From assembly GCA_023819145.1 (NCBI GenBank), contig JAMWCW010000003.1, forward strand, positions 78,887-142,886: DNA of 64,000 bases, written 5' to 3'. Made by a program: the position numbers and the translations under genes. The notes beneath the pieces were generated by a model. That model made no database searches. It was not told where the DNA came from and worked only from the letters and a program-made list of their open reading frames with translations. Shown here one piece after another: positions 23,667-64,000 of this stretch. The DNA comes from Candidatus Omnitrophota bacterium. Lineage in GTDB: Bacteria; Omnitrophota; Gorgyraeia; DTHP01. Each line of letters begins with the position of its first letter. The stretch's first letter is position 1.

Positions 23667-24698
23667 ATGTTTAAAAAATTGATTTTGGAAAATCAGGTTT
23701 ATTTTTTACTCTTGTTTTTAAGTTTGGTTTTGGGTATTTTTTCTTATCTAAATCGCGATTACTTAGGAATATCGCCGTTAGAAGAAGCTTTTAAAGGAGA
23801 AATTTCGCAATATGAAAACATTAGTTCCGAAGGTTTTGTTAAAAATATCGAACAGAATATTCAGATTTCTTATCTTCTAAAAATTACTTTTTTCGTTGGG
23901 TTTTTATTTTTTATAATGGGGGTATATTTTTGTTTTTCTTTTTTATTTGCTTTATTTAGAGGAAAGGTCACGCTTTTTTCTCAAGATTTCCCTGCTGTAA
24001 ATTGGCAAATTTTAGATATTTTTCGGGTAGTTATAGTCATAATTTTCTTTACAAGTTTTTTAAAGGTAATTGAGCCAATTTTTTTTAGAATATTTGGAAT
24101 TAACATCTTTGTCCGTTTTATGCTCCATGTCCTATTGTTTGACATTTTTTGCTTGGGGTTAATTATCTATTTTGTATATCAAAAACATCGCTCAACGCTT
24201 ATCAGTCTTGGTCTGGGCTTGAGTAATTTTATAAACAATATTTTGCTTGCTTTCCTTCACTATTTAGGAGTAATTCCTCTTCTGTTTTTATCTATATTTT
24301 TCTCTTTTTCTTTCACTCAACTCTTTAAATATAAACCGGAAATTTCTCCGCTCTTCTATTTCTTTTTTCTTCCTCAGCCAAAATTACTGATTTTCTTTAC
24401 TACAATTTTTATTGCGATTATCGGTCCCGTAATCGAAGAGATTTTCTTTAGAGGGTTTTGCTATCCCGCTTTACGCAGTAAAATTGGTCCTTTAAAGGCA
24501 ATGGTTTTAGTTTCTTTATTTTTTGCACTTTTACATATGAATGTGATAGGCTTTTTACCCATTTTTACTTTGGGTTTACTTCTTGTTTATCTCTATGAGA
24601 AGACACATTCCCTTTTCTCTTCAATTGGTGTACATATAATTCATAATAGTTTAATTCTCTATCTTGTTTTTCTCTATCGAGCTCTTTTGCTAAAATGA
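23667..24698 (+). CDS. CPBP-family intramembrane glutamic protease (CAAX protease/bacteriocin-processing family)
   Basis: Polytopic membrane protein with the EExxxR motif (VIEEIFFRGF) and FxxxH motif (FFALLHMN). Confidence 0.75.
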   Translation: MFKKLILENQVYFLLLFLSLVLGIFSYLNRDYLGISPLEEAFKGEISQYENISSEGFVKNIEQNIQISYLLKITFFVGFLFFIMGVYFCFSFLFALFRGKVTLFSQDFPAVNWQILDIFRVVIVIIFFTSFLKVIEPIFFRIFGINIFVRFMLHVLLFDIFCLGLIIYFVYQKHRSTLISLGLGLSNFINNILLAFLHYLGVIPLLFLSIFFSFSFTQLFKYKPEISPLFYFFFLPQPKLLIFFTTIFIAIIGPVIEEIFFRGFCYPALRSKIGPLKAMVLVSLFFALLHMNVIGFLPIFTLGLLLVYLYEKTHSLFSSIGVHIIHNSLILYLVFLYRALLLK

Positions 24699-40464: not shown

Positions 40465-40471
40465 GTTAAAG

Positions 40472-40675
40472 ATGAGCGATATTTTTAAGATTTTATTGAT
40501 TCTTTTTATGCTCCTTTTTCTTCTTCCGTCGTTTATTCGCTTAGCAGGTAATTTCTTTGAGCATTTGGTTTTCGGTAATATGACAAAGACTGAGTTCCTA
40601 GAACATTTTCGCGAGTTTAGTTATGGCCCTACTTTAGATTTCTATAAGGATTTATTCTATAAACTAGCCCACTAG
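40472..40675 (+). CDS. Small hypothetical membrane protein
   Basis: 67 aa, one TM helix, no motifs. Confidence 0.15.
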   Translation: MSDIFKILLILFMLLFLLPSFIRLAGNFFEHLVFGNMTKTEFLEHFREFSYGPTLDFYKDLFYKLAH

Positions 40676-40839
40676 AATTAGGCTTCTGTTTCCCAAATAT
40701 CAACGGAGCCTCTTTCAAGATTACCTTTCCTAAAGAATATCTTTCCTACCTTGACAAAACATTCGATATAAGCCATATCTTATATGTAAGAATGTCTGAG
40801 AATTTTTTCCGATTTAAAATGAATCTTTCGTGATTTAGG

Positions 40840-42909
40840 ATGTTCAAAAATTTATTATATATCATTATAATTATTGCTTATTCTGTTTTTTCTCCGTATA
40901 TATCTGAGGCAAGGCGGAGTAAAGATAGTAGAGCCTCTGCTATAACACCTTACGCATATGAAATCCGTTTTAATAAAGCAAACCATACCTATACCGTTAA
41001 TGGCGAAAAATACCCTTCTGTCCATGCAATCTTAAACCTTTTGGATAAGCCAGCACTTATCCCTTGGGCGATTAAAACGGTAATCACATATTTAGCAGAG
41101 AATAATATAACTCCCAATCCCAAAGATTCTTACCGCTATTATCAAGAGGCTTTGAGAGAAAGGGATAGAGCAGCGACAACCGGGACAGAGACGCACAGTT
41201 TTATAAGCCAAGCATTAAGTGGGCAGAAACATGCTTCCAGTTCACAAGACACCGCTCCTTATGTATCCTTAGCTGATAGAGGAGGTTTTCAGGCTGCATT
41301 TGCGAAATGGTTTAATGAGGCGCAACCAACCTTGGTTGCTTCAGAGGCAGTAGTAATATCACCTACCTATAAGTACGCAGGAACTATAGATGCGCTTTGT
41401 TTAATTCAAGGAGAATTGTGGCTAGTTGATTTTAAGACTTCCCCGAAAATTTACGATGACCATATTCTCCAGATAGCAGCCTATCGTCAGGCAATAGAAG
41501 AAATGGGTGGGTATTGGGTTTTATCAGGGGATAAGTATGTTTTTCATTCGTTGGAGGGCAAAAGAATTGCTCATACAGGTATAGTGCGTTTAGATAAAAG
41601 TAGTGGAGAAGTTGAATTTAAGAAATTAACAGAAGAAGAATACAGTGTGGCAGTAAATAAATTTCTGCTTTTGAGTAAGTATTATAATTTACATAATCCA
41701 GAAGATGTTTCCCGTTTTGGAGTAGTTGCGCCTTCGGGGTTAGAGGATAAGGCAACAGCAACTAATATTTTTGATAATCTGCTTGGCCTTGTCATCCAGG
41801 CAATGCGCGATTGTGGAACGACTGAAGAGGAAATTAGTAGATACATTGCCGAGGAACCTTATTTTTTCTTTCTTCCCGAAGTAAGAGCTATTTTACCCAA
41901 CGCCATTATGGCATTAAAGAATTACGGCATAGGAAGTTTTTCTGAACAGTGGAAAGTTTTTAAAGAGATTATTGATAATACCCGCCACAGAGATGTCAAA
42001 TATAGTGCTACATTTCTTGAAGTCCTCACAGACAGATTAATTAAAGGTGAGAAATTGGAAGATATTTTAAGGGATTTTAAAGATATGTGGCATTTTGGTT
42101 TTGTTTGGGCTACACGCTTTTCCAAAAAAAGCTGGGACAGTTTGATTACCAACAGGAAATATTTGGAAGAGAAGATACAGCAAGGTTTGCCTATTACTTA
42201 TCCCAACCCTCTGGCAATTCAAATTTATCCTGTAAGCGATTTCAATGGAGCTTTTAATAGTGATTTAGAAACCAGCGCTCTTATAGACCATGGGTATTTT
42301 GTGCTATATTACGAGGTGGATAATTTATTTGAGTTGTTAACAGCATTAGTAGATTCTACTGACCCTCAAAATGGTGTTAAGGCCTCTATAATTTGTTTGA
42401 ATGGTCATGGTAATCCCCAGGAAGTAGGAGAATATATTGCTGATTTATCTGATTTTAGGCTATTAGAAAAGTTTGGAGTAAAAGAATGCCTAGAAGAAGG
42501 AGGTTCTATAATTCTCTACTCCTGTGATACGGGTATTAACGGAGGTATAGTCAGTGCGCTATTTAATTTATTCCGACAGGCTAATTATATTTATGCTCCC
42601 ACAGGCAGACCCACTGGCTTAAAAATACAGTTTGATATTAATGGGGGGATAATCGAGGTTGAATATGAAGGTTCAGAGGTATATGATTTATTCAAGGAAC
42701 CAATTTACCAAAAGCCCACCGCCGAAGATATCCAAAGAGAGATTAGGTTATATTACGGTCTACTGGGGATTGACTTTAGAAAAATAAACATTCCGCAGTT
42801 GGTTTCCGAAATACAACGAGAGATTGAATTGCAATTTTATATGTTGGGATATATTATTTTTTCCGATTATCTCTCTCTCATCTATCAAACCTGCGATAAA
42901 TACAAATAA
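40840..42909 (+). CDS. Secreted multidomain protein: N-terminal PD-(D/E)XK (RecB/lambda-exonuclease/Cas4-like) nuclease domain plus C-terminal module with a His-Gly...Cys dyad
   Basis: Signal peptide MFKNLLYIIIIIAYSVFSPYISEA. Nuclease motifs GTETH, GTIDAL, LVDFKTS, QIAAYRQA (D...D-x-K...QxxxY). C-terminal module contains ICLNGHGNPQ ... ILYSCDTG. Confidence 0.5.
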   Translation: MFKNLLYIIIIIAYSVFSPYISEARRSKDSRASAITPYAYEIRFNKANHTYTVNGEKYPSVHAILNLLDKPALIPWAIKTVITYLAENNITPNPKDSYRYYQEALRERDRAATTGTETHSFISQALSGQKHASSSQDTAPYVSLADRGGFQAAFAKWFNEAQPTLVASEAVVISPTYKYAGTIDALCLIQGELWLVDFKTSPKIYDDHILQIAAYRQAIEEMGGYWVLSGDKYVFHSLEGKRIAHTGIVRLDKSSGEVEFKKLTEEEYSVAVNKFLLLSKYYNLHNPEDVSRFGVVAPSGLEDKATATNIFDNLLGLVIQAMRDCGTTEEEISRYIAEEPYFFFLPEVRAILPNAIMALKNYGIGSFSEQWKVFKEIIDNTRHRDVKYSATFLEVLTDRLIKGEKLEDILRDFKDMWHFGFVWATRFSKKSWDSLITNRKYLEEKIQQGLPITYPNPLAIQIYPVSDFNGAFNSDLETSALIDHGYFVLYYEVDNLFELLTALVDSTDPQNGVKASIICLNGHGNPQEVGEYIADLSDFRLLEKFGVKECLEEGGSIILYSCDTGINGGIVSALFNLFRQANYIYAPTGRPTGLKIQFDINGGIIEVEYEGSEVYDLFKEPIYQKPTAEDIQREIRLYYGLLGIDFRKINIPQLVSEIQREIELQFYMLGYIIFSDYLSLIYQTCDKYK

Positions 42910-43061
42910 AAAAACAAAATAATAGCTATTCTTTCCCGCCATAGATTGCCACACTTGACAGGTGTAGATTTGTCAGCCATATTTTATATAGAAGGTATAT
43001 TTATGGATTTATTTAAATAGTTGCGGGAATAAAGAGTTGGGATAAAAAGGATAATCATCAA

Positions 43062-44108
43062 ATGAACAATTTTAGGTTTAAAATCTTTAGACAGTTATGT
43101 TTGTATATTGCCTTGGGTATGTTCTGTGCAAGTCCTGTTTTTGCTCGTCGGACAAAATATGCAACAAGCGAGATGAAAAATGCGGTTTTTTTATCAGTAG
43201 AAGAAAGTAGACAATTGGGAGCAGAAATTATCAGGAGATTGTCTATAGGAGATACATATCAAGGTGAAATTTTGTATGGCAGAGATGATGGGGAGGGAAG
43301 GGTTTTTAATAACGAAAGCATTGATTTTGAATATGATTATCAAGGGAAATATGTACGTCTCGGTCCTCTTGTATTCTTAAATACAGAAAAAGAGGGTTTT
43401 TCTTGGAAGGAAATTTACGCCTGTTTAGGGGAAGAATTTTTGAAAAAATACGGCAGAAATATTATTTTTTATGTCTCTCCTGATAACCATTGGCAGTCAC
43501 GAATAGAAGTAATAGATTTTTTCTATAAGATTCCCCTTCCTTTTATAGATTTTACAACTCTGTCTGCTATTGTGGGCATGCTTAAGAACGGTGTTCAGGA
43601 TAAAGTGGTGGCAGATATCGGTTCTGGATTTGGGATTCTATCCTTAGTAGCTTTGCGTTTAGGAGCAAAAGAAATCTTTGCAGTAGAGGCTGAAGAATAT
43701 TGCTTGGAAAAAGCAGAGGAGATAATCCGCTTAAATGGTTATAGGTTAGGTATAGACGGGGAGGTGAAACTATTTCACCATACAGTTACTGAAGAAGATA
43801 TTTATCTAGGGTTACCACAAGAGGTTATAAATAGAGTAGAGCTAATTATATCCAATACAGGTCCATATTATTATCGACTACCTGCGTGGATTATAGAACA
43901 AGCGGCTATGTTTCCCTCTTGTCGTGCGATAATTTTGACCCATTATAAATCCTCCCGCCAAGATGGGGAGGAGGTTGGCGAAAGTGAAATCATCGCCCTC
44001 ATGAAGAGATTTGGTTTTGCTTATAATAAACATATTTTATTTTTTCCTATCGAGAAGGGAGCAATCCAAGGAGAAAGAGTAATAACTGTATTTTCAGGAT
44101 ATAGATAG
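43062..44108 (+). CDS. Signal-peptide-bearing class I SAM-dependent methyltransferase (PrmA-like)
   Basis: Signal peptide ...GMFCASPVFA; motif I VADIGSGFGILSLVALRLGAKEIFAVEAEE; 348 aa. Confidence 0.55.
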   Translation: MNNFRFKIFRQLCLYIALGMFCASPVFARRTKYATSEMKNAVFLSVEESRQLGAEIIRRLSIGDTYQGEILYGRDDGEGRVFNNESIDFEYDYQGKYVRLGPLVFLNTEKEGFSWKEIYACLGEEFLKKYGRNIIFYVSPDNHWQSRIEVIDFFYKIPLPFIDFTTLSAIVGMLKNGVQDKVVADIGSGFGILSLVALRLGAKEIFAVEAEEYCLEKAEEIIRLNGYRLGIDGEVKLFHHTVTEEDIYLGLPQEVINRVELIISNTGPYYYRLPAWIIEQAAMFPSCRAIILTHYKSSRQDGEEVGESEIIALMKRFGFAYNKHILFFPIEKGAIQGERVITVFSGYR

Positions 44109-44126
44109 AAGTAAACTTTTATTTAT

Positions 44127-45044
44127 ATGAAAGAAACGATAAAAATATTGGTTTTACTACTGGAAGTATTTCTTTTTACAGTTCGTTGTTGGGCATTGGT
44201 TGAATTAAATAGCAATTCTCAAGAAACTAATATCAGCGCAGTAATAGCGCCATATTCCGCCCCTCTTACAATTATAGGAGCACAAGATAAAGATAGCCAG
44301 GGTAGCAAAGAATGGCGGATTTATCTTGATGTTTCTAAATTTATCGAACTTTGGTCTCAAGAAGAGTATTTGCCGTTTGGTAAATATCAGCAATTAAAAT
44401 TGCTTACTACTTTAGAATTATATAAGGATAGAATTTCTCCCCGTTATAGTCAGGGAGAGATTAATGCGGTAGAAGCCTTTAGGAAGATATTAAAAGATGG
44501 CTATATAGATAGACAGACAATGGTAATTGTGGATATGGGAGGAGCGCATAGTGTAGCGGTGGCGATGGAGTTGGTTAAGCAATTGAGATTTCGCCCGATA
44601 ATTTTAGCGGATGTGGAACCATTGTGGCCAATGGGTTCGAATGTGCATGCAATTCAGGAATTGGCTACTTTACTTTATTTTTCTGCAGAGTTTGCAAAAA
44701 TTAAACCAACATTAACTCAAGATGCACCTCCTGTTTTTATTTTAGATTTACATCGTGGGGATAGACCTAGCATGCATAGGTCTTTAGATAATACTTATGT
44801 CATTGAGCCAGAGGAATTGCCTACGGTAGAGGAACTTTGGGCAAATGATGTTCATAAGGTGGTGATAATTAGAGAAGGGATGGGAACAAAAAGCAATGCG
44901 GGTTATCTAGATAATGTTGATTTCGGTCAACGGATTAAAGATTACGCTGTAAATGAAATAGAAGTTAAATTTTTTGAAATTAACCCTTGGCCTGATTTGG
45001 ATATTATTTTAGAAGAAATTAGAAGATTAAATGTATCTCCTTAA
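44127..45044 (+). CDS. Hypothetical exported protein
   Basis: Signal peptide (LLLEVFLFTVRCWA); 305 aa; no recognisable catalytic motif. Confidence 0.3.
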   Translation: MKETIKILVLLLEVFLFTVRCWALVELNSNSQETNISAVIAPYSAPLTIIGAQDKDSQGSKEWRIYLDVSKFIELWSQEEYLPFGKYQQLKLLTTLELYKDRISPRYSQGEINAVEAFRKILKDGYIDRQTMVIVDMGGAHSVAVAMELVKQLRFRPIILADVEPLWPMGSNVHAIQELATLLYFSAEFAKIKPTLTQDAPPVFILDLHRGDRPSMHRSLDNTYVIEPEELPTVEELWANDVHKVVIIREGMGTKSNAGYLDNVDFGQRIKDYAVNEIEVKFFEINPWPDLDIILEEIRRLNVSP

Positions 45045-45154
45045 AATCTATCCTTATTACTTGCAAACTAGTCTTTAGAATGTGAAAATATAGATAATTG
45101 GAGCATGTTGTATTAAAAAACAAGAGGTAAAGTTTCTCAAAATAATGGGCTAAA

Positions 45155-45568
45155 ATGCATGTAACTAAGAATGAGACTTTAAATATCGTAAGAAAAATAA
45201 GCGGATTTATATTAATTTTTATTTTATTTGAAATTTTTAAAATAGTAAATTGTTCCGAGTGGATTGAGTTTTCTTTACAGCGTAGAATTAAAGAACCCGG
45301 CGTTAGAAAAAGCTATACTCTTACTCTGGATAATCTAAAAATCGGTGAAAGAGCTATAATAGATTCTTTTGCTGAACCGGGGAGGGGTTATCGGTTGCGT
45401 TTAGCGAGCATGGGGTTGCGCGTAGGGTCTATGATAAAGGTTCTTTATAAAGAACCATTTAAAGGTCCGGTTTTAATAGAAGTAGATGGTAGCAGAATAG
45501 CCATTGGTAGGAATTTAGCAGAAAAGATAAATGTTATAGTAGAGCGTGATGCGAAGGCGCAGAAATGA
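45155..45568 (+). CDS. Membrane-anchored FeoA-like (SH3-like) domain protein
   Basis: N-terminal TM helix, then a FeoA-like pattern (LDNLKIGERAIIDSF...RLASMGLRVGSMIKVLYKEPFKGPVLIEVDGSRIAIGRNLAEKI); no feoB nearby. Confidence 0.4.
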   Translation: MHVTKNETLNIVRKISGFILIFILFEIFKIVNCSEWIEFSLQRRIKEPGVRKSYTLTLDNLKIGERAIIDSFAEPGRGYRLRLASMGLRVGSMIKVLYKEPFKGPVLIEVDGSRIAIGRNLAEKINVIVERDAKAQK

Positions 45569-45631
45569 TATAGAATCTAAAGGTATTTTATCTGCAGGAT
45601 GCTTTCTTTAACTTCCTTTTGTTAGCCCGCC

Positions 45632-45660
45632 TTGACGGTACATGTTTTTAATGCTATTCT
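45632..45660 (+). promoter_or_regulatory. Putative sigma70 promoter TTGACG-N17-TATTCT
   Basis: Read directly; 30 nt upstream of ORF 45694. Confidence 0.3.
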
Positions 45661-45693
45661 TTGATAAGGGGGGCTTTTATTTTTTAATGTAAG

Positions 45694-47073
45694 ATGAAAA
45701 AAACAGACTTGGTCAGGATGGTTTTTAGATTTAAACCTTTATATATTTTGGGTTTATTATCTTTGCAAACTTTATTACTTACCCCCCAGCGGGTTGGATT
45801 ATCTCAGATTACTCTTTTAATAAGAAGGGTTAAATTCAGCGAAGAGATAAGAGAAGGTTTATATCCTTTTCCTTTATCAGCTGAAGAATTACAGGAAGCT
45901 ATAGAAAACCTTTCTCCCGCGAGATGGTATTCCCGTACAGCGGTTATACCCCTGGGTAACGGCTTTGTGCAGGCAGTTAAGTTTCTCAAGAAAGGAGAAT
46001 CTATTACTGAACTAACACAGGAAGCAAGTATGATACAAGAGTTAAGAGATAAGGGTATAGAAATTTCTCCTTTGTTAGTCAAGGGTGAAGACGGTGAGTA
46101 TATTTTTGAATATAGAGGTAAATTTCTTTATGTTCCCGAGGAAGTGGATGCTTCGGGCAAATACATAAGCTATATTGTACCGCAGGAATACTTTATTTAT
46201 CCTGAGAATATCAACGACCCAGAGAAAATGATGGAGTGTGCATTGCTTTCTCTGAGCCAGTTTGCCAGATTGCTTAAAGCAGGTTATCTCCATCGGTCTC
46301 TTTCTCCGCTTACCCATGAGCAAAATAGTGGCAGAGAATGGTTATGGAACTATGTACCTATCGGCGGGATAGAAAATCTTCAGGATAGCCTTAAATATGC
46401 CAATATGGGATTGGCAGGACTTAGAGATTTTGCGCATGTTTCTGAGATTATTCCTGATGACTACCTTTATTTTTCCGTGGGGCAGGCGCTCTGTGAATGG
46501 GCAATAACCATTACCTATCATTCGCTTAAGAATGGATTTAGCCAAAGCCAGACATTTAATATTTTAGCCGCAGGTTTCGAGAGGTTTTTATCGGAGTGGG
46601 AATTGGATATTAAAATTGTGGAAGAAAATATTGATAAATTAGAGTCGTTTGTGAGCTTAGTTAGGCAGGAAATTAAAAACAATGCTCTATCTTCCCAAAA
46701 TGACGGTGGAAAACCTACCATAAATAATCTAGTTGGTTTTGTAAAGAAGATAATGGAGAAAATGAAGGAATCTTCCCTATATAGTCAATGGGAAACAGCA
46801 ACAGTGCGGGTGGAATATGTCTCCTTTGAAGAATTGGATAGAAATTTTGCTATAGAGCTAAGAGGAAGGATGGTTGTGCAGGAGGGAGAACTGAGATATG
46901 TAACTAATTGGCATAAGCGATGTTTGGAAATTTTTCATATTAGAGACGGTTCTTATCATCGGTACATTGCCCCTGGGAGCATTATAATGCCAAAAGAAAT
47001 ATTTAAGGAGGGAAACATTATTTATGTAGTGGATACAGAGCGAAAATGTATGGTAAAAATTACTCTACCTTAA
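45694..47073 (+). CDS. Hypothetical exported protein
   Basis: Hydrophobic N-terminus; 459 aa; no recognisable domain. Confidence 0.3.
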   Translation: MKKTDLVRMVFRFKPLYILGLLSLQTLLLTPQRVGLSQITLLIRRVKFSEEIREGLYPFPLSAEELQEAIENLSPARWYSRTAVIPLGNGFVQAVKFLKKGESITELTQEASMIQELRDKGIEISPLLVKGEDGEYIFEYRGKFLYVPEEVDASGKYISYIVPQEYFIYPENINDPEKMMECALLSLSQFARLLKAGYLHRSLSPLTHEQNSGREWLWNYVPIGGIENLQDSLKYANMGLAGLRDFAHVSEIIPDDYLYFSVGQALCEWAITITYHSLKNGFSQSQTFNILAAGFERFLSEWELDIKIVEENIDKLESFVSLVRQEIKNNALSSQNDGGKPTINNLVGFVKKIMEKMKESSLYSQWETATVRVEYVSFEELDRNFAIELRGRMVVQEGELRYVTNWHKRCLEIFHIRDGSYHRYIAPGSIIMPKEIFKEGNIIYVVDTERKCMVKITLP

Positions 47074-47138
47074 GAAGATTTGTTTACTTTATTTTCTAAA
47101 GGGAGTATAAATAAAAATAAGTTTTATAAGAGGTTTAA

Positions 47139-47756
47139 ATGAAAATTAGGCATTTTCGAAAAAAGACATTATTTACGGTTTATCTCTGTTTAACTTTCGT
47201 AATTTGCTTTTTTTCTTTTTCTAGCCACAGTTGCCCAGGAAATCTGGAGGTCTCTCTCGGAGCAAGGCGAATTAAAGACATAGTAGGAGCGTTTTCCCTC
47301 TCTCCTTCTATAAACGCCGTTCATAAACTAATTGTTTTAGATAAGCAAAAGATAGTGGTTGTCGATGGGGATACCCTGCACTATGATGATGAAAGAGTTA
47401 GGCTACTGGGAGTTGATTGTCCTGAACTTGCAACAGATACTTTTGGAGGGAGAGGACAAGAACCCTATGCCACAGAAGCCAAGGATTTTGTAATTAAGCG
47501 CTTACAGGAAGGGACAAGGATAGAATTAGTTTTAATTGAGGAGCAGGATAAATACGGAAGAAGTTTAGGACACATTTTTATTGATGGGGAATCCCTTTCT
47601 TTAGAATTAATAAGGAGGGGGTTAGGGTATGAAACCGTTTCCCGTTATGGAGATAATGGGTTTACAGAATTATCCGCTCAAATCTTAGAGGCGGCAAAGA
47701 AAATAACTCCTTCCTTTGAGAATCCTTCTGAATGGCGGAAGAAAAACAGAAGATAA
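47139..47756 (+). CDS. Secreted thermonuclease (staphylococcal nuclease/SNase family)
   Basis: Signal peptide; SNase motifs VVDGDTL...VRLLGVDCPE...GQEPYATEAKDF...YGRSLGHIF. Confidence 0.75.
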   Translation: MKIRHFRKKTLFTVYLCLTFVICFFSFSSHSCPGNLEVSLGARRIKDIVGAFSLSPSINAVHKLIVLDKQKIVVVDGDTLHYDDERVRLLGVDCPELATDTFGGRGQEPYATEAKDFVIKRLQEGTRIELVLIEEQDKYGRSLGHIFIDGESLSLELIRRGLGYETVSRYGDNGFTELSAQILEAAKKITPSFENPSEWRKKNRR

Positions 47757-47827
47757 GGCTCGGGGCTGTTAAAATTTTTGGTATAGGGGTTTATTTACCG
47801 GTTGAGTAAATTATTTGACAGCTTCTC

Positions 47828-47856
47828 TTGACAAAGTGGATTTTTGAGGATATAGT
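47828..47856 (+). promoter_or_regulatory. Sigma70 promoter TTGACA-N17-TATAGT (a second TTGACA lies 13 nt upstream at 47815)
   Basis: TTGACA 47828-47833, exact 17-nt spacer, TATAGT 47851-47856; about 50 nt upstream of ORF 47909. Confidence 0.5.
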
Positions 47857-47908
47857 TTATTTAGAAAGATGGTTCTTTAATTTTTTATTTTAAAATAGAT
47901 ATTAGGAT

Positions 47909-49246
47909 ATGAAACTGACAAACCAAAAACTAAAATATTTTGTTAAGCCATTCAAGATTCTGCTTATTTTTCTTATCCTTAATCTCTCTTTCGGATATTT
48001 ACACATTGCAGATATTTTTGTTATTTCTGTATTATCTCGTCGCATCAGAGATTTTGATTTCAGCTACATAAGAGGTAGCAAAGAGGCAAAGGTGGAATGG
48101 AAATATTTTGGTTTGACGCCTGCAATGTTTCAACGCATCTTGGACGCACTTATTGAGTCAGGTATTTGTTCAGTTTCAGGGAGGAAAGGGGTAATTTTTA
48201 TAGGAGGTACTTCCGCGGGAGGAAAATCTCCTGCGACAGATTTTATTACTGCAATGCTTAGAGGATACGGAATAAACGTAAAGTATATCTCTTTGGATAA
48301 TTATTATAAAGACCGTGAGAAGATGCCTACTTCCCCAGATGGCAATTTTGATTTTGATAGTGTTGAGGCTTTAGACATTGATAAATTTCAAAAACACTTG
48401 CATATACTTTTGACTACCTCAGAAGAGATAACGCCTCCTCACTTTGATATGAAGACCGGAAAAAGTAGCGATGGTAAAGATCCGATTCAGCTTCTGGAAG
48501 GAGAAGTTTTGATTGTAGAAGGAATTCATGCCTTGACTCCTCGGATGACTAATAAAGAGCGAGATGGGGATATTATTCCTCCAGAGGTGGTAAGGCTTAT
48601 GTTTTTTGTGAATGCTGAACGAGATACGCGTTTACCGCGGAGAATGGTGAGAGATAGTGAAGTGCGGGGGTATATTCCCGAAGCAACTATCTGGAATTGG
48701 GATAAGATAGTTGTGCCTGGAGAGGATAATCATATTATTCCCGGGAAAATTGAGGCTTTAAAATTGGCAGAAGAGCGAGGACAGAAGATAATTGAAATTG
48801 ATACAACTCTTCCTTTGGATAAGATAAGTGATATCCAGCCTTTGGGAGAGGTGTTTAGAGAAAGTTTAATTCAGGCCGGAGAAAGAATGGGGAAGTTAAT
48901 TCCGCTTTTAGAAAAAGAAGATTTTTATTCGCTTATCTCGCAGGTTCAAGGTAGTGAGTTAAGTAAAAGTTTGGTTGCTTTTCTAAAGATAAAAAGCCAT
49001 CAGGATAGGATTAGAGATTTATTGCGCAGTTTAGACAGTGAGTCAGAGAAAGGATTTATTAAGATAATAGGAGAAGGTACGCCAGATCAAATTTTGGAAT
49101 TTCTAAGCGAGACTTTGCTTCGTTATTCCACTAACACTTCCTTTAGGGAAGAGATGAACTTACTCCGGTTAGACCTTTTGGGTGCAATGCGCTATGTAGC
49201 AAGAAGAATAGATGAATTACGCAATAAATATTTTTCTATCCCTTAA
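47909..49246 (+). CDS. Membrane-anchored uridine kinase/phosphoribulokinase-family P-loop kinase with a ~250-aa C-terminal extension
   Basis: N-terminal TM helix; GGTSAGGKS P-loop; ISLDNYYKD and LIVEGIHALTP motifs match the Udk family. Confidence 0.55.
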   Translation: MKLTNQKLKYFVKPFKILLIFLILNLSFGYLHIADIFVISVLSRRIRDFDFSYIRGSKEAKVEWKYFGLTPAMFQRILDALIESGICSVSGRKGVIFIGGTSAGGKSPATDFITAMLRGYGINVKYISLDNYYKDREKMPTSPDGNFDFDSVEALDIDKFQKHLHILLTTSEEITPPHFDMKTGKSSDGKDPIQLLEGEVLIVEGIHALTPRMTNKERDGDIIPPEVVRLMFFVNAERDTRLPRRMVRDSEVRGYIPEATIWNWDKIVVPGEDNHIIPGKIEALKLAEERGQKIIEIDTTLPLDKISDIQPLGEVFRESLIQAGERMGKLIPLLEKEDFYSLISQVQGSELSKSLVAFLKIKSHQDRIRDLLRSLDSESEKGFIKIIGEGTPDQILEFLSETLLRYSTNTSFREEMNLLRLDLLGAMRYVARRIDELRNKYFSIP

Positions 49247-49306
49247 CAGCTTTTTAGTTTCGATTTTTGTATAAATAAAATTATTTCTTAAATATACTCT
49301 ACAGAT

Positions 49307-49939
49307 ATGAAGCTAAAAGTATTAAAAGAGATTATTGGGTATTTAGAATTAGTTATTTTATTTTCGTTATTTCTTAACAGGTCTAATCTTCTTAGAGATG
49401 GCGCATTTATTGGGATAAGAAGGGTAAAAGAGGTTTTACAGACGCAAGTAAGGAATAGAAGCAGAGAGCTTGTTGGTTTATTTAAAACAGAAAATGGGCT
49501 TGGGTATAAAATCTATAGAGAAGAAATTCTGCCTCTTATGTTAGCGGGTCCTTCACAAGCAATACCCTTTACAGTGGAAATGAGAGCGATGATAGCAGAG
49601 GTAAATAGTGATGCAGATAGTGGTGAAGAAATGGTGGCGGGAAGGATATCTTTATATATCCCTCAGATACCCTATATAAATATAGCCGAAATTGAGGTTA
49701 ATATAGCTTCCCCTTATAAAGACTCAGGAATTTTAAATAAACTGTTTAGTTTAATTTTAAAAGAAGCACGTAATCGCGGATTTAGTCATTTAAGAATGGC
49801 CACAACATCTTTAAGTTCCGGAGAGATATTTATTTTTCTTAAACAAGAGGAAGCACACGGTATTATTTCCCATCTTACCTTCTATCCGCTACAAGATGGT
49901 CTGGTTTTTATTGGTTTTGATATTGCCAATCGGGAATAA
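49307..49939 (+). CDS. Hypothetical protein (possible GNAT-like acetyltransferase fold)
   Basis: Weak GNAT-like C-terminal pattern (ILNKLFSLILKEARNRGFSHLRM); low confidence. Confidence 0.25.
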   Translation: MKLKVLKEIIGYLELVILFSLFLNRSNLLRDGAFIGIRRVKEVLQTQVRNRSRELVGLFKTENGLGYKIYREEILPLMLAGPSQAIPFTVEMRAMIAEVNSDADSGEEMVAGRISLYIPQIPYINIAEIEVNIASPYKDSGILNKLFSLILKEARNRGFSHLRMATTSLSSGEIFIFLKQEEAHGIISHLTFYPLQDGLVFIGFDIANRE

Positions 49940-50013
49940 ACCATAATTTAACCCCTTTCTCAAAAAACATTTGTAAATCCCTTGCTCTTTTGTTATACTT
50001 TAAGGGAAATTAA

Positions 50014-56375: not shown

Positions 56376-57308
56376 ATGAAGGATTTTAAAAAGATTATAC
56401 GTCCGCTGCTGGGGTTATTTATTTTAGTTTTAATCTTCTTCAGCATTGTTTCTTTAGTAACGATTTTTCCATCAAAAGGGTTCGCTAAGCGATGGGAATT
56501 TAAAAAGATATATACAAAAGCATTAGAGGAGGAAAAAAGAGGAAGTCTCGGCAAAGCGATAGAATATTTAGAGAAGATAGATGATAGTTTTGGAAAGGAT
56601 AAAAAAATTTATAATGCTTGGTTTAAACTCGCTTTGCTTTATGAGAAGGCTAATCGCTTCTTAGAAGCAAAAAAGCTTTTAGAAAAGATAATCTTAGAAT
56701 CGGGGACAGGAGACATCATTAAGAAAGCCCAAGAAGAATTGGGTAAGCTTAATATAAAGATTATTTTTTCTCCTCTTGTCACCGAAAACGCTTTTCTTTA
56801 TGAAGTAAAAGAAGGGGATTCACTAATTAAAATTGCTCAACGGTTTAATACTACCGTAGAACTTATTAGAAAGGCAAATAATCTTAAAGAAGATGCCTTT
56901 CTTCGCCCAGGGATGAAACTAAAAATAACTAAAGAAAAATTTTCTGTTTTGGTAGATAAATCTCAGAATACCCTTACCCTTAAGGCAGATGATAGAGTGG
57001 TTAAAGTATATACCGTTTCCACCGGTCTAAATAATATCACTCCTGTGGGTACCTTTAAAATTATTAACAAAATTACCAAGCCGGTATGGTATAAAGATGG
57101 TAAAGTTATTTCCCCGGATGATCCGGAAAATATTTTAGGAAGTCACTGGTTAGGAATTTCTGAACGCGGATACGGCATACATGGAACAACCCAACCCGAG
57201 ACAATTGGCAAGCATGTTACTCAAGGTTGCGTAAGGATGTATAATCATGATGTAGAAGAACTCTATATTATTTTGCCTATCGGAACGGAAGTAACCATTA
57301 TGGAATAA
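56376..57308 (+). CDS. LysM-domain L,D-transpeptidase (YkuD family)
   Basis: N-terminal TM anchor, LysM (YEVKEGDSLIKIAQRFNTTVELIRKANNL), catalytic HGT...GCVRM motif. Confidence 0.8.
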   Translation: MKDFKKIIRPLLGLFILVLIFFSIVSLVTIFPSKGFAKRWEFKKIYTKALEEEKRGSLGKAIEYLEKIDDSFGKDKKIYNAWFKLALLYEKANRFLEAKKLLEKIILESGTGDIIKKAQEELGKLNIKIIFSPLVTENAFLYEVKEGDSLIKIAQRFNTTVELIRKANNLKEDAFLRPGMKLKITKEKFSVLVDKSQNTLTLKADDRVVKVYTVSTGLNNITPVGTFKIINKITKPVWYKDGKVISPDDPENILGSHWLGISERGYGIHGTTQPETIGKHVTQGCVRMYNHDVEELYIILPIGTEVTIME

Positions 57309-58441: not shown

Positions 58442-60091
58442 ATGAAAACGATTGTTGAAATTTTTTCAGAAGCAACAGAAAAATTTAAAGATAGAGTAGG
58501 AATACAGATGGTCTCTGATGGGGAAAAAGAGGCCATTTTTTATGCTCAGATTCGGTTGAAGGTAGAGAAAATCATTTGGCGATTGAAGAATTGGGGTATA
58601 GAGAAAGGAACTCCTATTGGCATTTTGTCGGAGAATCGTCCCGAATGGGTCTATGCTTATTTTGCCATTTTAAGTGCAGGGGGAGTAGTAGTAGGTATTG
58701 ATATCAATCTGAAGCCACAGGAAATTTTATTCATTCTTCAGCACGCGGAGATAAAGATCATCTTTGTGTCTAAAAATAACCTCCCTATAATCTCAGAGAT
58801 GGACAAAAGCTCTTTACTTGAGAAAATAATTTGTTTTGATGATGGGGAGGGAGATGGGATATGCCGTCTCTCTGATATTCTTAAGGAAGATTTTGCATTT
58901 TTACCTTCTACTGAAGTTTCAGTAGATGACCTTGCGATGCTTGTTTACACATCCGGAACAACCGGTAATCCTAAGGCGGTTATGCTTAGCCACCGTAACA
59001 TTACGAGCAATATAAAAATGATACGCAAGATTTTTCAATGGGATTGGCGGGACAATTTTTTGTCCCTTTTACCCCTTTCTCATATGTTTGAGCTCACCTG
59101 CGGATTACTTGCTCCATTCTCTTCGGGAGCGAAGATTACTTATATCAGTTCATTGAGACCCGATTATATTTTAGATACGATGAAGGACGAGAAGGTAACT
59201 TTTGTGATGGTAGTCCCTGGCATATTACGTTTAATCCGTATGGAGATATTAAAACACATAAAACAAATTTCCCTAAAGAAAAAACTTATTTTTTATTTAT
59301 GTTTTGGAATCTGTGCGGTATTTCGGTTGTTTAATTTAAATTTGGGTAAGATAATGTTTAAAAAAATCCATGAGCGCTTTGGCAGGAGTTTAAAATTTTT
59401 TGTCAGTGGAGGAGCTCCTTTGTCTCCTTTTATTATTTGGTGGTTTGATGTTTTGGGGATTACAATATTACAGGGCTATGGACTAACCGAAGCTTCTCCC
59501 GTTATTTCTGTGAATACTCCTTTAGAAAACCGCATCGGTTCAGTAGGAAAACCTCTTCCGGGTATAGAGGTAAGAATCGAGAACGATTTCGCTACGGGAG
59601 AAGTATTGGTAAGGGGTGAAAATGTAATGCTTGGCTATTATAAAAATACCCAGGAGTCAAAAAGCGCTTTGAGAGACAATTGGCTCTATACGGGTGATAT
59701 AGGAAGAATAGATAGCCATGGTTTTCTCTATATTCTGGGAAGAGAAAAAAATGTAATTGTTTTGGAATCGGGGTTAAAAGTTTATCCTGAAGAATTAGAA
59801 GAAGAATTACTCAAGAAACCCGCGATTCGTGAAGTATGCGTCATTGGTAAGAGAGAGTTTGGTTATCCCGAGGAGAAGGTATATGCCTTAATTGTTCCTC
59901 ATGAAGAATACCTGGGTTTGACGTTAGATAAAGATTTAGATAAAATAAGGGAGTTTTTGGAGAAAGAGGTAAAGGCTTTAAACGAACGTTTGGCTGCCTA
60001 TAAGCACATCCGTGGATTTGAGATACGCAAGGACCTTCCCAAAACTGCCACCCGAAAAATAAAGAAAGAACTAGTTAAAAATACGCTTTAA
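58442..60091 (+). CDS. Long-chain-fatty-acid--CoA ligase (AMP-binding enzyme)
   Basis: AMP-binding signature LVYTSGTTGNPKAVMLSHRN, GYGLTE, and a C-terminal lid with conserved Lys. Confidence 0.8.
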   Translation: MKTIVEIFSEATEKFKDRVGIQMVSDGEKEAIFYAQIRLKVEKIIWRLKNWGIEKGTPIGILSENRPEWVYAYFAILSAGGVVVGIDINLKPQEILFILQHAEIKIIFVSKNNLPIISEMDKSSLLEKIICFDDGEGDGICRLSDILKEDFAFLPSTEVSVDDLAMLVYTSGTTGNPKAVMLSHRNITSNIKMIRKIFQWDWRDNFLSLLPLSHMFELTCGLLAPFSSGAKITYISSLRPDYILDTMKDEKVTFVMVVPGILRLIRMEILKHIKQISLKKKLIFYLCFGICAVFRLFNLNLGKIMFKKIHERFGRSLKFFVSGGAPLSPFIIWWFDVLGITILQGYGLTEASPVISVNTPLENRIGSVGKPLPGIEVRIENDFATGEVLVRGENVMLGYYKNTQESKSALRDNWLYTGDIGRIDSHGFLYILGREKNVIVLESGLKVYPEELEEELLKKPAIREVCVIGKREFGYPEEKVYALIVPHEEYLGLTLDKDLDKIREFLEKEVKALNERLAAYKHIRGFEIRKDLPKTATRKIKKELVKNTL

Positions 60092-60099
60092 GATTTATA

Positions 60100-60182
60100 T
60101 GCTGGAGGTGGGAGTTGAACCCACACGGGTGTAACCCCACCGGTTTTTGAGACCGGCGTGTATGCCATTCCACCACTCCAGC
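60100..60182 (-). tRNA. tRNA-Leu (anticodon CAA), class II with long variable arm
   Basis: Reverse complement GCTGGAG...CTCCAGCA folds into a cloverleaf. 7-bp acceptor stem; anticodon stem CCGGT/ACCGG with loop CTCAAAA; long variable arm; GTTCAACTC T-loop. Confidence 0.75.
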
Positions 60183-60221
60183 ATTAATTCTTATACCCAT
60201 AAACTCTACTACCACTTTTTA

Positions 60222-60635
60222 CTAGTGAAGCACCTGTCTATTTTTTGCTCCTTGACGTAATTGCAAGGCTCGAGGAGGTCCGATAATCGCAGAGTAAATT
60301 ATGGCAGTTTCTAATTCATGGGGAGAGATTGTTTCTCCCTTTTCTGTTTTAGATAGTTTTATTTCTTCAACCTTTTCTTTTTTTTCTAAGTTTATCTCTT
60401 GAATTTTTTCAACTTCTAATTCTTGCGCTTTTTCTTTTTCTTCAAACACTACCTCTGCAGGAAGATTTTCTTCCCCGTAGGGTATTTCCAGAGTTTCCAA
60501 AAGGTCTTCTAAGGGGTTTTTGGGGGAAGTTTTTTCTTCAACAGGTGTATGTCTTTTCTTGCGTTCTAAAATTTGTCCCACCGATTGTAAGACAAAGAGG
60601 ATAACGATAAAAAATAGAAAAAATAAATTCTCCAT
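60222..60635 (-). CDS. Hypothetical N-terminally anchored Glu/Lys-rich protein
   Basis: One TM helix followed by a charged low-complexity region; downstream of floA on the - strand. Confidence 0.3.
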   Translation of the reverse strand: MENLFFLFFIVILFVLQSVGQILERKKRHTPVEEKTSPKNPLEDLLETLEIPYGEENLPAEVVFEEKEKAQELEVEKIQEINLEKKEKVEEIKLSKTEKGETISPHELETAIIYSAIIGPPRALQLRQGAKNRQVLH

Positions 60636-60683
60636 TACCTAAATTACCTCTTTACAAACGGATTGTTATAGATAAATTTATAT

Positions 60684-61667
60684 TTAATCTTTTTCTTTCT
60701 TTTTCTCCTCAGTCGGTTTACCAATTCGCTCCCGCATCTCCGTATCTGCTTGGATGTTTCGTAGCGAATAATAATCCATTACTCCCAGTTTTCCCTCTTT
60801 AAAGGCATAAGCAATTGCTTTAGGAATTTCTGCCTCTGCTTCTACCACCTTTGCTCGCATCTCTTGGACGCGTGCTTTCATTTCCTGCTCTTGGGCTACG
60901 GCAAGAGCCCTTCTTGTCTCCGCTTTTGCCTGGGCAACTTTTAAATCTGCTTCTGCCTGGTCTGCCTGAAGCTGAGCGCCGATATTTTTCCCTACATCAA
61001 CATCCGCAATATCAATGGAAAGAATCTCAAAAGCAGTGCCCGAATCCAACCCTTTTGCCAAAACAGTTTTAGAAATTAAATCAGGGTTCTCTAAAACATT
61101 TTTATAACTCTCGGCAGAACCGATGGTAGTAACAATTCCTTCCCCAACACGGGCGATAATCGTTTCCTCAGTTGCTCCTCCTACCAGCCGTTCGATATTG
61201 GCACGCACCGTTACGCGTGCTTTTGCCTTTAATTCTATGCCATCTTTGGCGACTGCTGCCAGAACTCCTTCTTTAGGGGCATCAATTACTTTGGGATTTA
61301 CTGAAGTTTTCACTGCATCCAAAACATCCCGTCCCGCAAGGTCGATAGCACAGGCCCGTTCAAATTTTAAGTCGAGATTTGCTTTATCTGCAGAGATTAA
61401 TGCTTTAACGACACGAATTACGTCTCCGCCTGCAAGATAATGCGCTTCTAATCCATCCAATTTTATAGAAAGCCCAGCTTTATGGAGCATAATTAGACCG
61501 GGAACAATAATCCGCGGGTCAACATTGCGTAGGCGCATGCCGATTAGACTGAAGATAGAAATTCTTACTCCTGCGGCAATAGCCGCAATCCAGAGTCGCA
61601 CGGGAATGAAATAGCCAAAGAGAAAAAGCGTTGCTACAATAACTATAGCGATGACAAATACAGGCAT
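60684..61667 (-). CDS. floA: Flotillin-like protein FloA (SPFH/band-7, YqfA family)
   Basis: Near-colinear match by eye to the FloA family pattern (GVRISIF..GMRLR...AHYLAGG...[10 protein letters not shown]...[11 protein letters not shown]...[19 protein letters not shown]...QADQAEAD). Confidence 0.85.
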
Positions 61668-61707
61668 TTTGCACCTCCATTCTTGGTTAAATGTTAACTG
61701 GTTTTAA

Positions 61708-62187
61708 CTAAATTTGTTTGACGATGACACGATTGCCTTCTGTTTTTATGACTAAAACTTGTTTATTCTGTTCAATGAATACCCCTCCTTCAGAGAGTGC
61801 ATCGATTCTTTTCCCTTCAATTAAGCATATTCCAACAGGGCGAAGAGGTGAGATGGTTTTCCCTATTTTGTTGACTAAACTACTTAAATCGCCTTTAAAG
61901 GGTTTAAAACCTGCTTCTTTCGTTTCCTGATGTTCCAAACGGAGTTTTTTCCAGATTTTGGTTTTGGGAAAGAGCCTCCATGATAAAATAATAAGCATCA
62001 AACTGCCTAAAGAAACAATCAATCCTAATCCAAGGTTTAATTTTGTCCAAGCGAAATAGGAAGCAAGGATTAAAGAGGCAATTCCACTCATTCCCAGTAT
62101 GCCAAAACCGGGAATAATTAAAATCTCAATGGCTAAAAGCACATAGCCTAATAAAATAAGCGTTAAAACCAATAACCAATTAGGCAT
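61708..62187 (-). CDS. NfeD-family membrane protein (short form, OB-fold C-terminus)
   Basis: Three TM helices plus a C-terminal beta-barrel (GKTISPLRPVGICLIEGKRIDALSEG); paired with floA. Confidence 0.7.
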   Translation of the reverse strand: MPNWLLVLTLILLGYVLLAIEILIIPGFGILGMSGIASLILASYFAWTKLNLGLGLIVSLGSLMLIILSWRLFPKTKIWKKLRLEHQETKEAGFKPFKGDLSSLVNKIGKTISPLRPVGICLIEGKRIDALSEGGVFIEQNKQVLVIKTEGNRVIVKQI

Positions 62188-62221
62188 TATCTTATTCCTT
62201 GATTTATTTGTAAATCAGGAA

Positions 62222-63739: not shown

Positions 63740-63760
63740 AAAAGGGTATTTTTGTTATTT
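63732..63760 (+). promoter_or_regulatory. Putative promoter for tRNA-Ala: TTGACA-N17-TATTTT with TGn (also TATAAT at 63768-63773)
   Basis: Same TTGACA-N17-TGnTAT... architecture as the cvpA and clpC promoters. Its spacer shares the 11-mer AAAAGGGTATT with the 33886 promoter. Confidence 0.4.
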
Positions 63761-63787
63761 TATTTGTCTATAATAGCAAAAATCTTT

Positions 63788-63863
63788 GGGGCCGTAGCTC
63801 AGTTGGGAGAGCAACAGGCTGGCAGTCTGTGGGTCAGGGGTTCAAATCCCCTCGGCTCCACCA
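63788..63863 (+). tRNA. tRNA-Ala (anticodon GGC), CCA encoded
   Basis: GGGGCCGTAGCTCAGTTGGGAGAGC... cloverleaf, G3:U70 alanine identity pair, anticodon loop CTGGCAG, T-loop GGTTCAAATCC, 3' CCA. Confidence 0.85.
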
Positions 63864-63938
63864 TATTGAATTATCCGCATCGCCCTCGCCTTCGGCTCGG
63901 GCTTCGGCAGGCAGATTGGCGAGGAAATTAAAAAGTTT

Positions 63939-64000
63939 ATGAAATCAATTGACACGCTTCAGAAATTTACCCCCACACCAATAAATTATGTATTATGTTT
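63939..64000 (+). CDS. Possible 5' end of a CDS (MKSIDTLQKFTPTPINYVLC...), truncated by the window edge
   Basis: ATG preceded by GAGGAAA 10 nt upstream; too short to classify. Confidence 0.15.
   Translation, partial: MKSIDTLQKFTPTPINYVLC

Follow-up and report, generated by a model that had tools for sequence, protein, structure and literature searches.

A candidate exported protein of Omnitrophota joining a phage-type PD-(D/E)XK exonuclease domain to a DUF4347-related, caspase-like His/Cys module

The stretch of DNA described here (the window) comprises 64,000 nucleotides of contig JAMWCW010000003.1 from a Candidatus Omnitrophota assembly (GCA_023819145.1). It contains an open reading frame (ORF) for a rare protein that, judged from its sequence, joins an export-like leader, a phage-type exonuclease domain and a caspase-like His/Cys module. 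The ORF encodes 689 aa followed by a stop codon and opens with an ATG, upstream of which the open frame has no other start (Table 1). The product is 100% identical to NC818_02705, a hypothetical protein encoded on a 144-kb contig of a Candidatus Omnitrophica metagenome-assembled genome (MAG). We give an even chance to the reading that it is an exported multidomain enzyme for DNA degradation or scavenging, in which the exonuclease is accompanied by a self-cleaving or target-cleaving caspase-like module. The original prediction, made from the sequence without database searches, had proposed a signal peptide, a PD-(D/E)XK nuclease and a caspase-like His/Cys module in a combination for which it knew of no described family. 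The analysis refuted none of these elements. The motifs on which it relied were located at residues 115-119 (GTETH), 181-186 (GTIDAL), 194-200 (LVDFKTS) and 211-218 (QIAAYRQA) for the nuclease, and at 518-526 (ICLNGHGNP) and 558-565 (ILYSCDTG) for the C-terminal module, with 39 residues from H523 to C562. They exceed chance: the nuclease residues are at least 90% conserved in an alignment of 148 sequences, and neither the His nor the Cys varies among 22 copies of the module.

A Phage-Type Exonuclease Domain

Residues ~37-290 match the PHROG 298 family, annotated as "exonuclease" (phrog_298, E=5.6e-30), and weaker matches to the same domain are given by the PADLOC Cas4 models and by Pfam PDDEXK_1. 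When 1.84 billion representative proteins were searched exhaustively with a profile, 4818 matched at E<=1e-3. Of the 150 best homologues, nearly all are stand-alone proteins of about 210-270 aa which cover residues 40-285. Homologues were also found by tblastn in 126 phage genomes, with 23-33% identity and the labels exonuclease, Cas4 exonuclease and RecE-like exonuclease. Residues H119, E169, D184, D197, K199, Q211, and Y215 are among the columns with at least 90% conservation in the 148-sequence alignment, and together they correspond by sequence to the complete catalytic set of the RecB/Cas4/lambda-exonuclease branch. The catalytic D184 and D197-F-K199 are accompanied by the QxxxY motif (Q211...Y215) that marks the RecB/Cas4/lambda-exonuclease/MGME1 branch.

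Structure prediction from the ORF product and a single homologue was unusable, with a mean predicted local distance difference test (pLDDT) score of 43.8, and the AlphaFold model built on the 148-sequence alignment was used instead. Here the nuclease domain was predicted with a pLDDT of 85-98 and contains the core alpha-beta-beta-beta-alpha-beta fold. Cas4 structures were among its fold matches. The proposed PD-(D/E)XK nuclease is strongly confirmed by the PHROG 298 and Cas4 profile matches and by this model, and the fold and catalytic residues predict that the domain acts as an intact metal-dependent exonuclease.

Several features separate the domain from its relatives. The phage exonucleases of PHROG 298 and human MGME1 are stand-alone, leaderless proteins of about 210-270 aa found in the cytoplasm, in phages or in the mitochondrial matrix, whereas the ORF product begins with an export-like leader and is extended by 400 aa at its C-terminus. 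The Cas4 model TIGR00372 aligns with residues 167-241 (E=1.8e-5), but its 24.7 bits fall far below the equivalog cut-off of 65. The PD-(D/E)XK core is like that of Cas4, while the CRISPR-cas context and the iron-sulfur cluster are absent: no cas genes were found nearby and there is no four-cysteine cluster. C187 is the sole cysteine of the nuclease domain, which therefore cannot hold the Cas4 iron-sulfur cluster, making the name Cas4 inappropriate.

With phage exonucleases and Cas4 as its best family matches, the gene could be pictured as a remnant prophage recombination exonuclease, or as a Cas4-like defence nuclease acting intracellularly. This is most improbable. No phage, CRISPR or recombinase genes lie nearby, and the flanks carry dnaG, rpoD, a flavodoxin-like gene and a GMP-synthase-like gene. 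PADLOC recognized no defence system in this gene or its island (described below), giving generic domain matches only, so that assignment to a defence system was rejected. The single cysteine argues against a Cas4 cluster, and the leader found here is missing from the other homologues examined (see below).

A Conserved Module With Clan CD Features

The C-terminal part of the protein belongs to a different set of homologues. Eleven representatives from the same search (P0006, P0013, P0015, P0018, P0024, P0041, P0059, P0069, P0094, P0109, and P0126) match residues 322-640 and not the nuclease, with E values from 5e-37 to 2e-15. The named relatives are from Omnitrophota and Margulisiibacteriota/WOR-1. 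A genome scan added ten further loci encoding the module, seven of them in MAGs named Omnitrophota. On these sequence matches, the module constitutes a small family found mainly in Omnitrophota. Word-index homologue searches were insensitive, returning two proteins for the full-length query and one for the profile of the C-terminal module.

Only four columns, G485, E492, H523, and C562, are invariant in the alignment of 22 module copies. Therefore no residues of the family are better conserved than the His and Cys singled out by the original prediction. These two stand in IICLNGH523G and IILYSC562DTG, each at the end of a hydrophobic strand; the hhhhGHG and hhL.SC.TG contexts, with His before Cys, are the arrangement of clan CD. 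The same order, again with each residue behind a hydrophobic strand, is found in caspases (C14) and CHAT proteins, and the spacing within the present family is 39-55 residues.

Profile comparisons lead to the same superfamily by way of the relatives. DUF4347 (PF14252) was matched at E<=0.1 by 5 of 14 family members. Its gathering score of 24.6 was exceeded by P0069 (36.2 bits) and P0015 (31.5 bits), in alignments that span the His and Cys region, and these two homologues are linked to the ORF product at E 1e-16 to 1e-20. The UniRef label of P0024 is DUF4347 domain protein. The next-best Pfam families for the relatives were CHAT and caspase models: CHAT was matched by four members (best 1.3e-4) and Peptidase_C14 by four (best 8.1e-4). 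All matches to clan CD models came from relatives and lie below the gathering scores, and no curated clan CD model was matched significantly. The present subfamily differs from DUF4347 in a conserved N-terminal element of its own, RFS...NR...RPLAV.IYP.SDWNGAF, and is found together with HEAT repeats in Omnitrophota proteins.

Searching the family profile against all PDB sequences gave 41 weak matches (best E=0.013), 36 of them to caspases, namely caspases-3, -4, -6, and -7 and reconstructed ancestors. In these alignments the strand-GHG falls on the catalytic strand-SHG. Human caspase-3 was aligned by hhalign at P=0.0035 with the His in the same register as in the PDB search. No chain of the C80 cysteine protease domain (CPD) appeared among the PDB profile matches at E<=10, and membership in C80 was not found. 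Foldseek matches to KaiC and B12-binding domains were located in a low-confidence region of the model and were dismissed.

The claim of a caspase-like His/Cys module is thus supported by convergent, individually weaker lines: the invariant H523 and C562, the Pfam matches of relatives and the caspases in the PDB. The module belongs to the DUF4347-related family and conserves its His and Cys, from which a caspase-like fold and protease activity are predicted. The best reading is that it is a clan CD-like thiol enzyme.

The module also occurs internally, and often twice, in very long proteins with HEAT repeats from Omnitrophota and "Planctomycetales" MAGs. The module-bearing long proteins of Omnitrophota range from 1733 to >6218 aa. 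Two copies are present at each of L007, L013, and L015, and the module is also encoded at L014, L009, and L011. The ORF at L013, with >6218 aa and two module copies, runs off both ends of its contig. In both copies of L007 (= P0094), GHA is found instead of GHG and the Cys stands in the context GCS.G.

Leader, Connecting Regions and Origin of the Fusion

By inspection, the N-terminus has the n/h/c layout of a Sec substrate processed by signal peptidase I. A basic n-region (MFK) leads into a 14-residue hydrophobic core (NLLYIIIIIAYSVF), and the c-region that follows (SPYISEA) places Ser at -3 and Ala at -1; hydropathy over 19 residues peaks at 1.68. The signal peptide of the original prediction is in this sense present, and export is plausible from the resemblance. 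A twin-arginine translocation (Tat) signal was rejected since the RR follows the hydrophobic segment instead of preceding it and no second hydrophobic region comes after. A lipoprotein signal was rejected as well, the lipobox cysteine being absent.

Comparison with homologues shows that the leader is restricted in distribution. It is retained in the ortholog fragment P0005 (FSEA-RRIK), and P0163, a 289-aa nuclease from Omnitrophica that stands alone and is 44% identical to residues 1-290, likewise opens with a hydrophobic leader, here followed by RRMR. Altogether, 3 of 257 nuclease homologues examined have an export-like leader, all from Omnitrophota. The other 254 lack a hydrophobic N-terminus, and the leader is therefore a lineage-specific addition to an enzyme that is normally cytoplasmic or phage-borne. 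Relatives of the C-terminal module are different in this respect: every one that is N-terminally complete (P0006, P0159, P0126/L009, and the L014 protein) starts with a signal peptide.

Between the nuclease and the His/Cys module lie a linker predicted to be disordered and flexible, which is a candidate processing site, and an all-helical repeat region. The repeats end in a conserved W..I.W..RFS....I.NR element directly preceding the module. A PDB match to a designer pentatricopeptide protein (E=0.011) was dismissed as helical-repeat noise. The module is followed by a three-helix tail known only from the ORF product and its ortholog P0002, and residues 625-689 are insufficiently hydrophobic for a membrane helix.

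The rarity of the fusion was surveyed among the best 150 matches (at least 71.6 bits) from the 1.84 billion representative proteins. Both domains are covered by only one ortholog there, which was seen as two fragments, P0002 (C-terminal) and P0005 (N-terminal), with 72-75% identity on two contigs of GCA_050252475.1. Among these matches the fusion is thus present in two related MAGs only. Novelty claimed for the fusion holds for this particular architecture; the concept of a secreted caspase-like peptidase paired with a nuclease has a precedent (PMC3482391). The closest nuclease relatives, P0163/P0004 from Omnitrophota and P0003, have 44-47% identity and stop right after the nuclease domain. 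In the closest C-terminal relative, P0006 (682 aa, Omnitrophica), a helical N-terminal half stands where the nuclease would be. The fusion probably arose from an exported 289-aa Omnitrophota nuclease similar to P0163 that became linked to part of an exported Omnitrophota protein of ~700 aa similar to P0006, namely its helical and His/Cys half.

Table 1. Coordinates in the window of the ORF, its parts and the island genes (all residue numbers refer to the 689-aa product)
Feature	Position	Strand	Basis
Complete ORF, 689 aa	40840-42909	+	NC818_02705
N-terminal leader, residues 1-24, predicted signal peptidase I site after SEA	40840-40911	+	inspection, hydropathy
RRSK, residues 25-28, RRx(K/R) motif	40912-40923	+	common to 7/8 island leaders
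PD-(D/E)XK exonuclease domain, residues ~37-290, MGME1/Cas4/RecE/lambda-exonuclease type	40948-41709	+	profile matches, alignment, fold
Catalytic core, D184 (41389-41391) to D197-x-K199 (41428-41436)	41389-41436	+	conserved columns
Predicted flexible linker, residues ~291-320	41710-41799	+	pLDDT <50 at 296-314
All-helical repeat region, residues ~321-450	41800-42189	+	common to P0006, P0013, P0015, P0024
DUF4347-related, putative caspase-like His/Cys module, residues ~455-620	42202-42699	+	profile, alignment
H523 codon, invariant His of GHG motif	42406-42408	+	module alignment
C562 codon, invariant Cys of SC.TG motif	42523-42525	+	module alignment
Three-helix C-terminal tail, residues 625-689	42712-42906	+	AlphaFold model, hydropathy
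Rest of leader-bearing island, seven genes	43062-49939	+	ORF list, domain matches
PrmA-like S-adenosylmethionine (SAM) methyltransferase with leader	43062-44108	+	
305-aa protein of unknown function, leader but no RR motif	44127-45044	+	
FeoA/SH3-like (FeoA-domain) protein with leader	45155-45568	+	
SidJ-related pseudokinase-like protein, 459 aa, with leader	45694-47073	+	NF033874 E=5.3e-17, residues 64-266
SNase (staphylococcal nuclease homologue) with leader	47139-47756	+	PF00565 E=6e-14
PRK/uridine-kinase-like P-loop protein, intact GGTSAGGKS, with leader	47909-49246	+	
210-aa protein with leader	49307-49939	+	

A Variable Island of Leader-Bearing Genes

The fusion gene is the first of eight consecutive genes on the same strand (40840-49939, +), each of which opens with a hydrophobic segment. 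In seven of the eight, the motif RR[STIV][KR] is found at residues 25-44, as RRSK, RRTK, RRIK, RRVK, RRIK, RRIR, and RRVK. By amino-acid composition, 0.0044 would be expected per 40-residue slot, and all 60 proteins of the window together contain just four further instances. The motif is missing from other exported-looking proteins encoded there, for example those at 3634-5250, 23667-24698, and 56376-57308. The residue preceding RR varies (A, Q, I, S, L, F or T), so that the motif is more than a plain signal peptidase I site. It may act as a lineage-specific signal for sorting, processing or topology.

The same order of leader and RRx(K/R) was found outside the window, in three other Omnitrophota MAGs. 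It is present in a FeoA-like ortholog (L001 1460-1900, LNF-RRIR), in an ortholog fragment (L005 5944-6510, SEA-RRIK), in the P0163 nuclease (YQL-RRMR) and in an unrelated 326-aa protein from another Omnitrophica MAG (L002 17992-18972, FLT-RRVK). The SNase ortholog in L001, a related MAG, has lost the motif and reads VRWTRG instead.

Comparison with a related genome, in which an island with the same flanks is represented by L005 and L001 (against 40465-50013 of the window), revealed a different gene content. The related island encodes a 454-aa signal-peptide protein that is absent from the window, an ortholog of the fusion, a FeoA-like protein and the SNase (L001 1938-2543, 59% identity). It is without the methyltransferase, the 305-aa protein, the SidJ-like and PRK-like proteins and the 210-aa protein. 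Identity between the two genomes is 52-59% for the shared island genes and 84% for a flanking DUF5981-like gene. From the differing content and the lower identity than in the flank, this is a fast-evolving variable island. The upstream order of dnaG, rpoD, the flavodoxin-like gene, a GMP-synthase-C-like PP-loop gene and a 67-aa membrane ORF is kept in the related genome. This small ORF (40472-40676, +) encodes one hydrophobic helix (MSDIFKILLILFMLLFLLPSF...), lies between the GMP-synthase-like gene and the fusion gene, and is conserved in the related MAG at L005 3849-4052.

Among the neighbours, the SidJ-related protein is defined by its NF033874 match; it had no Pfam, PHROG or PADLOC match and, by phmmer, no PDB match. 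SidJ itself is a Legionella effector. The PrmA-like, FeoA/SH3-like, and PRK-like domains are normally cytoplasmic, yet here they are leader-bearing, and they would need their own or a host's cytoplasm for activity.

At a larger scale, every one of the 56 genes listed as far as about 60.1 kb lies on the + strand, where the GC skew is positive; from 60.2 kb onwards gene orientation changes to the - strand and the skew becomes negative. tRNA genes are located at 60100-60182 (-) and 63788-63860 (+). The strand switch in the region ~60000-64000 may be related to replication, or the skew may simply be linked to transcription.

Candidate Functions and Competing Explanations

In the reading given an even chance above, the Sec-type leader would carry the protein across the inner membrane, as its layout and its relatives suggest. 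The PD-(D/E)XK exonuclease would then digest DNA ends outside the cytoplasm, in the periplasm or extracellularly. Such an enzyme could work there because it is metal-dependent and has no ATP requirement. The flexible linker and the helical repeats would connect the nuclease to the DUF4347-related module. By analogy, this module most likely cleaves its own polypeptide, most plausibly in the linker at residues 291-320, and would thereby release or activate the nuclease; alternatively, it may cleave target proteins. Together with the neighbouring SNase, the exonuclease would degrade foreign, prey or host DNA, for attack or for nucleotide scavenging.

Several observations weigh against this reading. 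RR at +1/+2 past a cleavage site hampers Sec export in E. coli and is atypical for Sec substrates, and the hydrophobic segment of the ORF product is flanked by +2 on its C-terminal side against +1 on its N-terminal side. Some of the neighbours (PrmA-like, PRK-like, and SidJ-related) are ATP- or SAM-dependent and would be inactive outside a cytoplasm. Direct scans of residues 291-467 and 451-689 gave no Pfam match at E<=10, and the ORF product itself matches neither a Pfam peptidase model nor DUF4347 even at that level. Residues 455-620 were predicted with a pLDDT of only 40-55, because only about 10 of the 148 alignment rows covered the module, which leaves the caspase fold and the geometry of the dyad putative. 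Lastly, no immunity-like gene and no obvious secretion machinery adjoin the gene, and the nuclease is N-terminal, unlike the C-terminal toxins of polymorphic toxin systems.

The charges and the cytoplasmic-type neighbours would also be explained if the leader were an uncleaved anchor. RRx(K/R) would then be a positive-inside determinant, and the enzymes of the island would stay membrane-associated in the cytoplasm. Positive charges right behind a signal peptide disfavour Sec translocation in general, RRx(K/R) directly follows the hydrophobic region in seven of the eight island proteins, and the leaders on ATP- and SAM-dependent neighbours would need no further explanation. In addition, many long Omnitrophota proteins have been predicted in a preprint to be membrane-anchored with cytoplasmic domains (10.64898/2026.06.07.730766). 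Nevertheless, a tethered cytoplasmic protein is rather unlikely. Sequence inspection showed that most island leaders have more positive charge on their N-terminal than on their C-terminal side; their n-regions carry +3 to +5, favouring the N-in orientation of signal peptides. An alanine, a small residue fit for position -1, stands immediately before RR in three of seven cases, and in five of seven the motif lies 10-20 residues past the hydrophobic core, too distant for a simple stop-transfer flank. Moreover, SNase homologues are typically secreted, and relatives of the C-terminal module bear ordinary signal peptides. A helical-hairpin anchor was rejected for most island proteins, as the second hydrophobic stretch has just 7-12 residues.

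The role of the C-terminal module in the exported enzyme can likewise be questioned. It might be structural, adhesive or ligand-binding, or it might be a thiol enzyme of another kind, for example a transpeptidase or sorting enzyme within clan CD (GPI8- or PorU-like), with the His and Cys serving other chemistry or binding metal. No function for DUF4347 is given in the literature searched, and the missing peptidase match and low-confidence fold of the ORF product leave room for such roles. Weak matches to other alpha/beta families (DAGK_cat and DUF4159) were also obtained. Against this, the clan CD signature, a strand-His-Gly and then a strand-Cys, is invariant in the 22 copies, the enrichment of caspases in the PDB search is specific, and CHAT and caspase models rank directly behind DUF4347. 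A non-protease, or a thiol enzyme of another kind, is accordingly held to be rather improbable.

Known secreted systems offer a model for self-cleavage. Caspase-like domains of secreted toxins and large surface proteins act as releasing peptidases if they are internal and as toxins if they are C-terminal (PMC3482391, PMC2900308). A processing role fits since the module is internal and duplicated in giant HEAT-repeat proteins of Omnitrophota. HEAT repeats have been reported to be extracellular in such giant proteins (10.1101/2023.11.21.568195). What the ORF product would share with the C80 CPD of MARTX and clostridial toxins and with Tox-Caspase is the concept of a secreted multidomain protein in which a clan CD-like module frees an enzymatic payload; such modules are also known from large surface proteins and as arrays (PMC3482391, PMC2900308). 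It differs from these toxins in that the payload is N-terminal rather than C-terminal and activation of the inositol hexakisphosphate (InsP6) type is not evidenced.

The likeness extends to polymorphic toxins or contact-dependent competition systems, in which the nuclease would be a toxin released by the peptidase and a neighbouring gene would encode the immunity protein. Secreted polymorphic toxins do pair caspase-like releasing peptidases with nucleases of the restriction-endonuclease fold (PMC3482391), and the variability of the locus and its lower identity than the flank would suit such a system. However, this explanation is very unlikely. The nuclease is at the wrong end of the protein for a polymorphic toxin, and no RHS, filamentous-haemagglutinin, PAAR, VgrG or other trafficking domain was found. 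There is no immunity candidate either: the downstream genes are leader-bearing and enzyme-like, not immunity-like, and the gene downstream in the relative is a different, FeoA-like one.

Implications for Omnitrophota Biology

Both catalytic domains belong to known superfamilies, and the pairing of a secreted caspase-like peptidase with a nuclease is known in principle. Three points are new on the sequence evidence. The first is an apparently exported version of a phage-type exonuclease family, seen in Omnitrophota only among the homologues examined. The second is that this nuclease is fused, in the two MAGs known so far, with a DUF4347-like module found repeatedly in giant proteins of the phylum; the third is the RRx(K/R) leader common to the island.

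Omnitrophota are uncultured, ultra-small bacteria which are thought to be predators or parasites, and to our knowledge almost everything known of their effectors comes from giant surface proteins. A bolder interpretation is that the locus is a hypervariable effector island of predatory or parasitic Omnitrophota. The leader and RRx(K/R) would form an undescribed export or host-targeting signal, for which the RxLR and PEXEL motifs of eukaryotic parasites are proposed as a functional parallel. This signal would send cytoplasmic-type enzymes (two nucleases, a methyltransferase, and SidJ-like, nucleoside-kinase-like and SH3/FeoA-like proteins) into the prey, and the His/Cys module would free the nuclease inside the target. 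This scenario is doubtful; at this stage support is weak both for a new signal that targets effectors and for a module by which giant proteins process themselves. A role in DNA degradation or scavenging fits a phylum thought to be predatory or parasitic, with a second nuclease, likewise predicted to be exported, in the variable island.

The locus suggests that a family of normally leaderless phage or stand-alone nucleases has become an exported enzyme and has been joined to a His/Cys module of giant proteins. If the module is an autoprocessing peptidase, this would explain how giant HEAT-repeat proteins are cut into working parts, and it would provide the first functional assignment for DUF4347. 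The RRx(K/R) leader, shared by functionally unrelated neighbouring enzymes, is a testable candidate for a lineage-specific sorting or processing signal.

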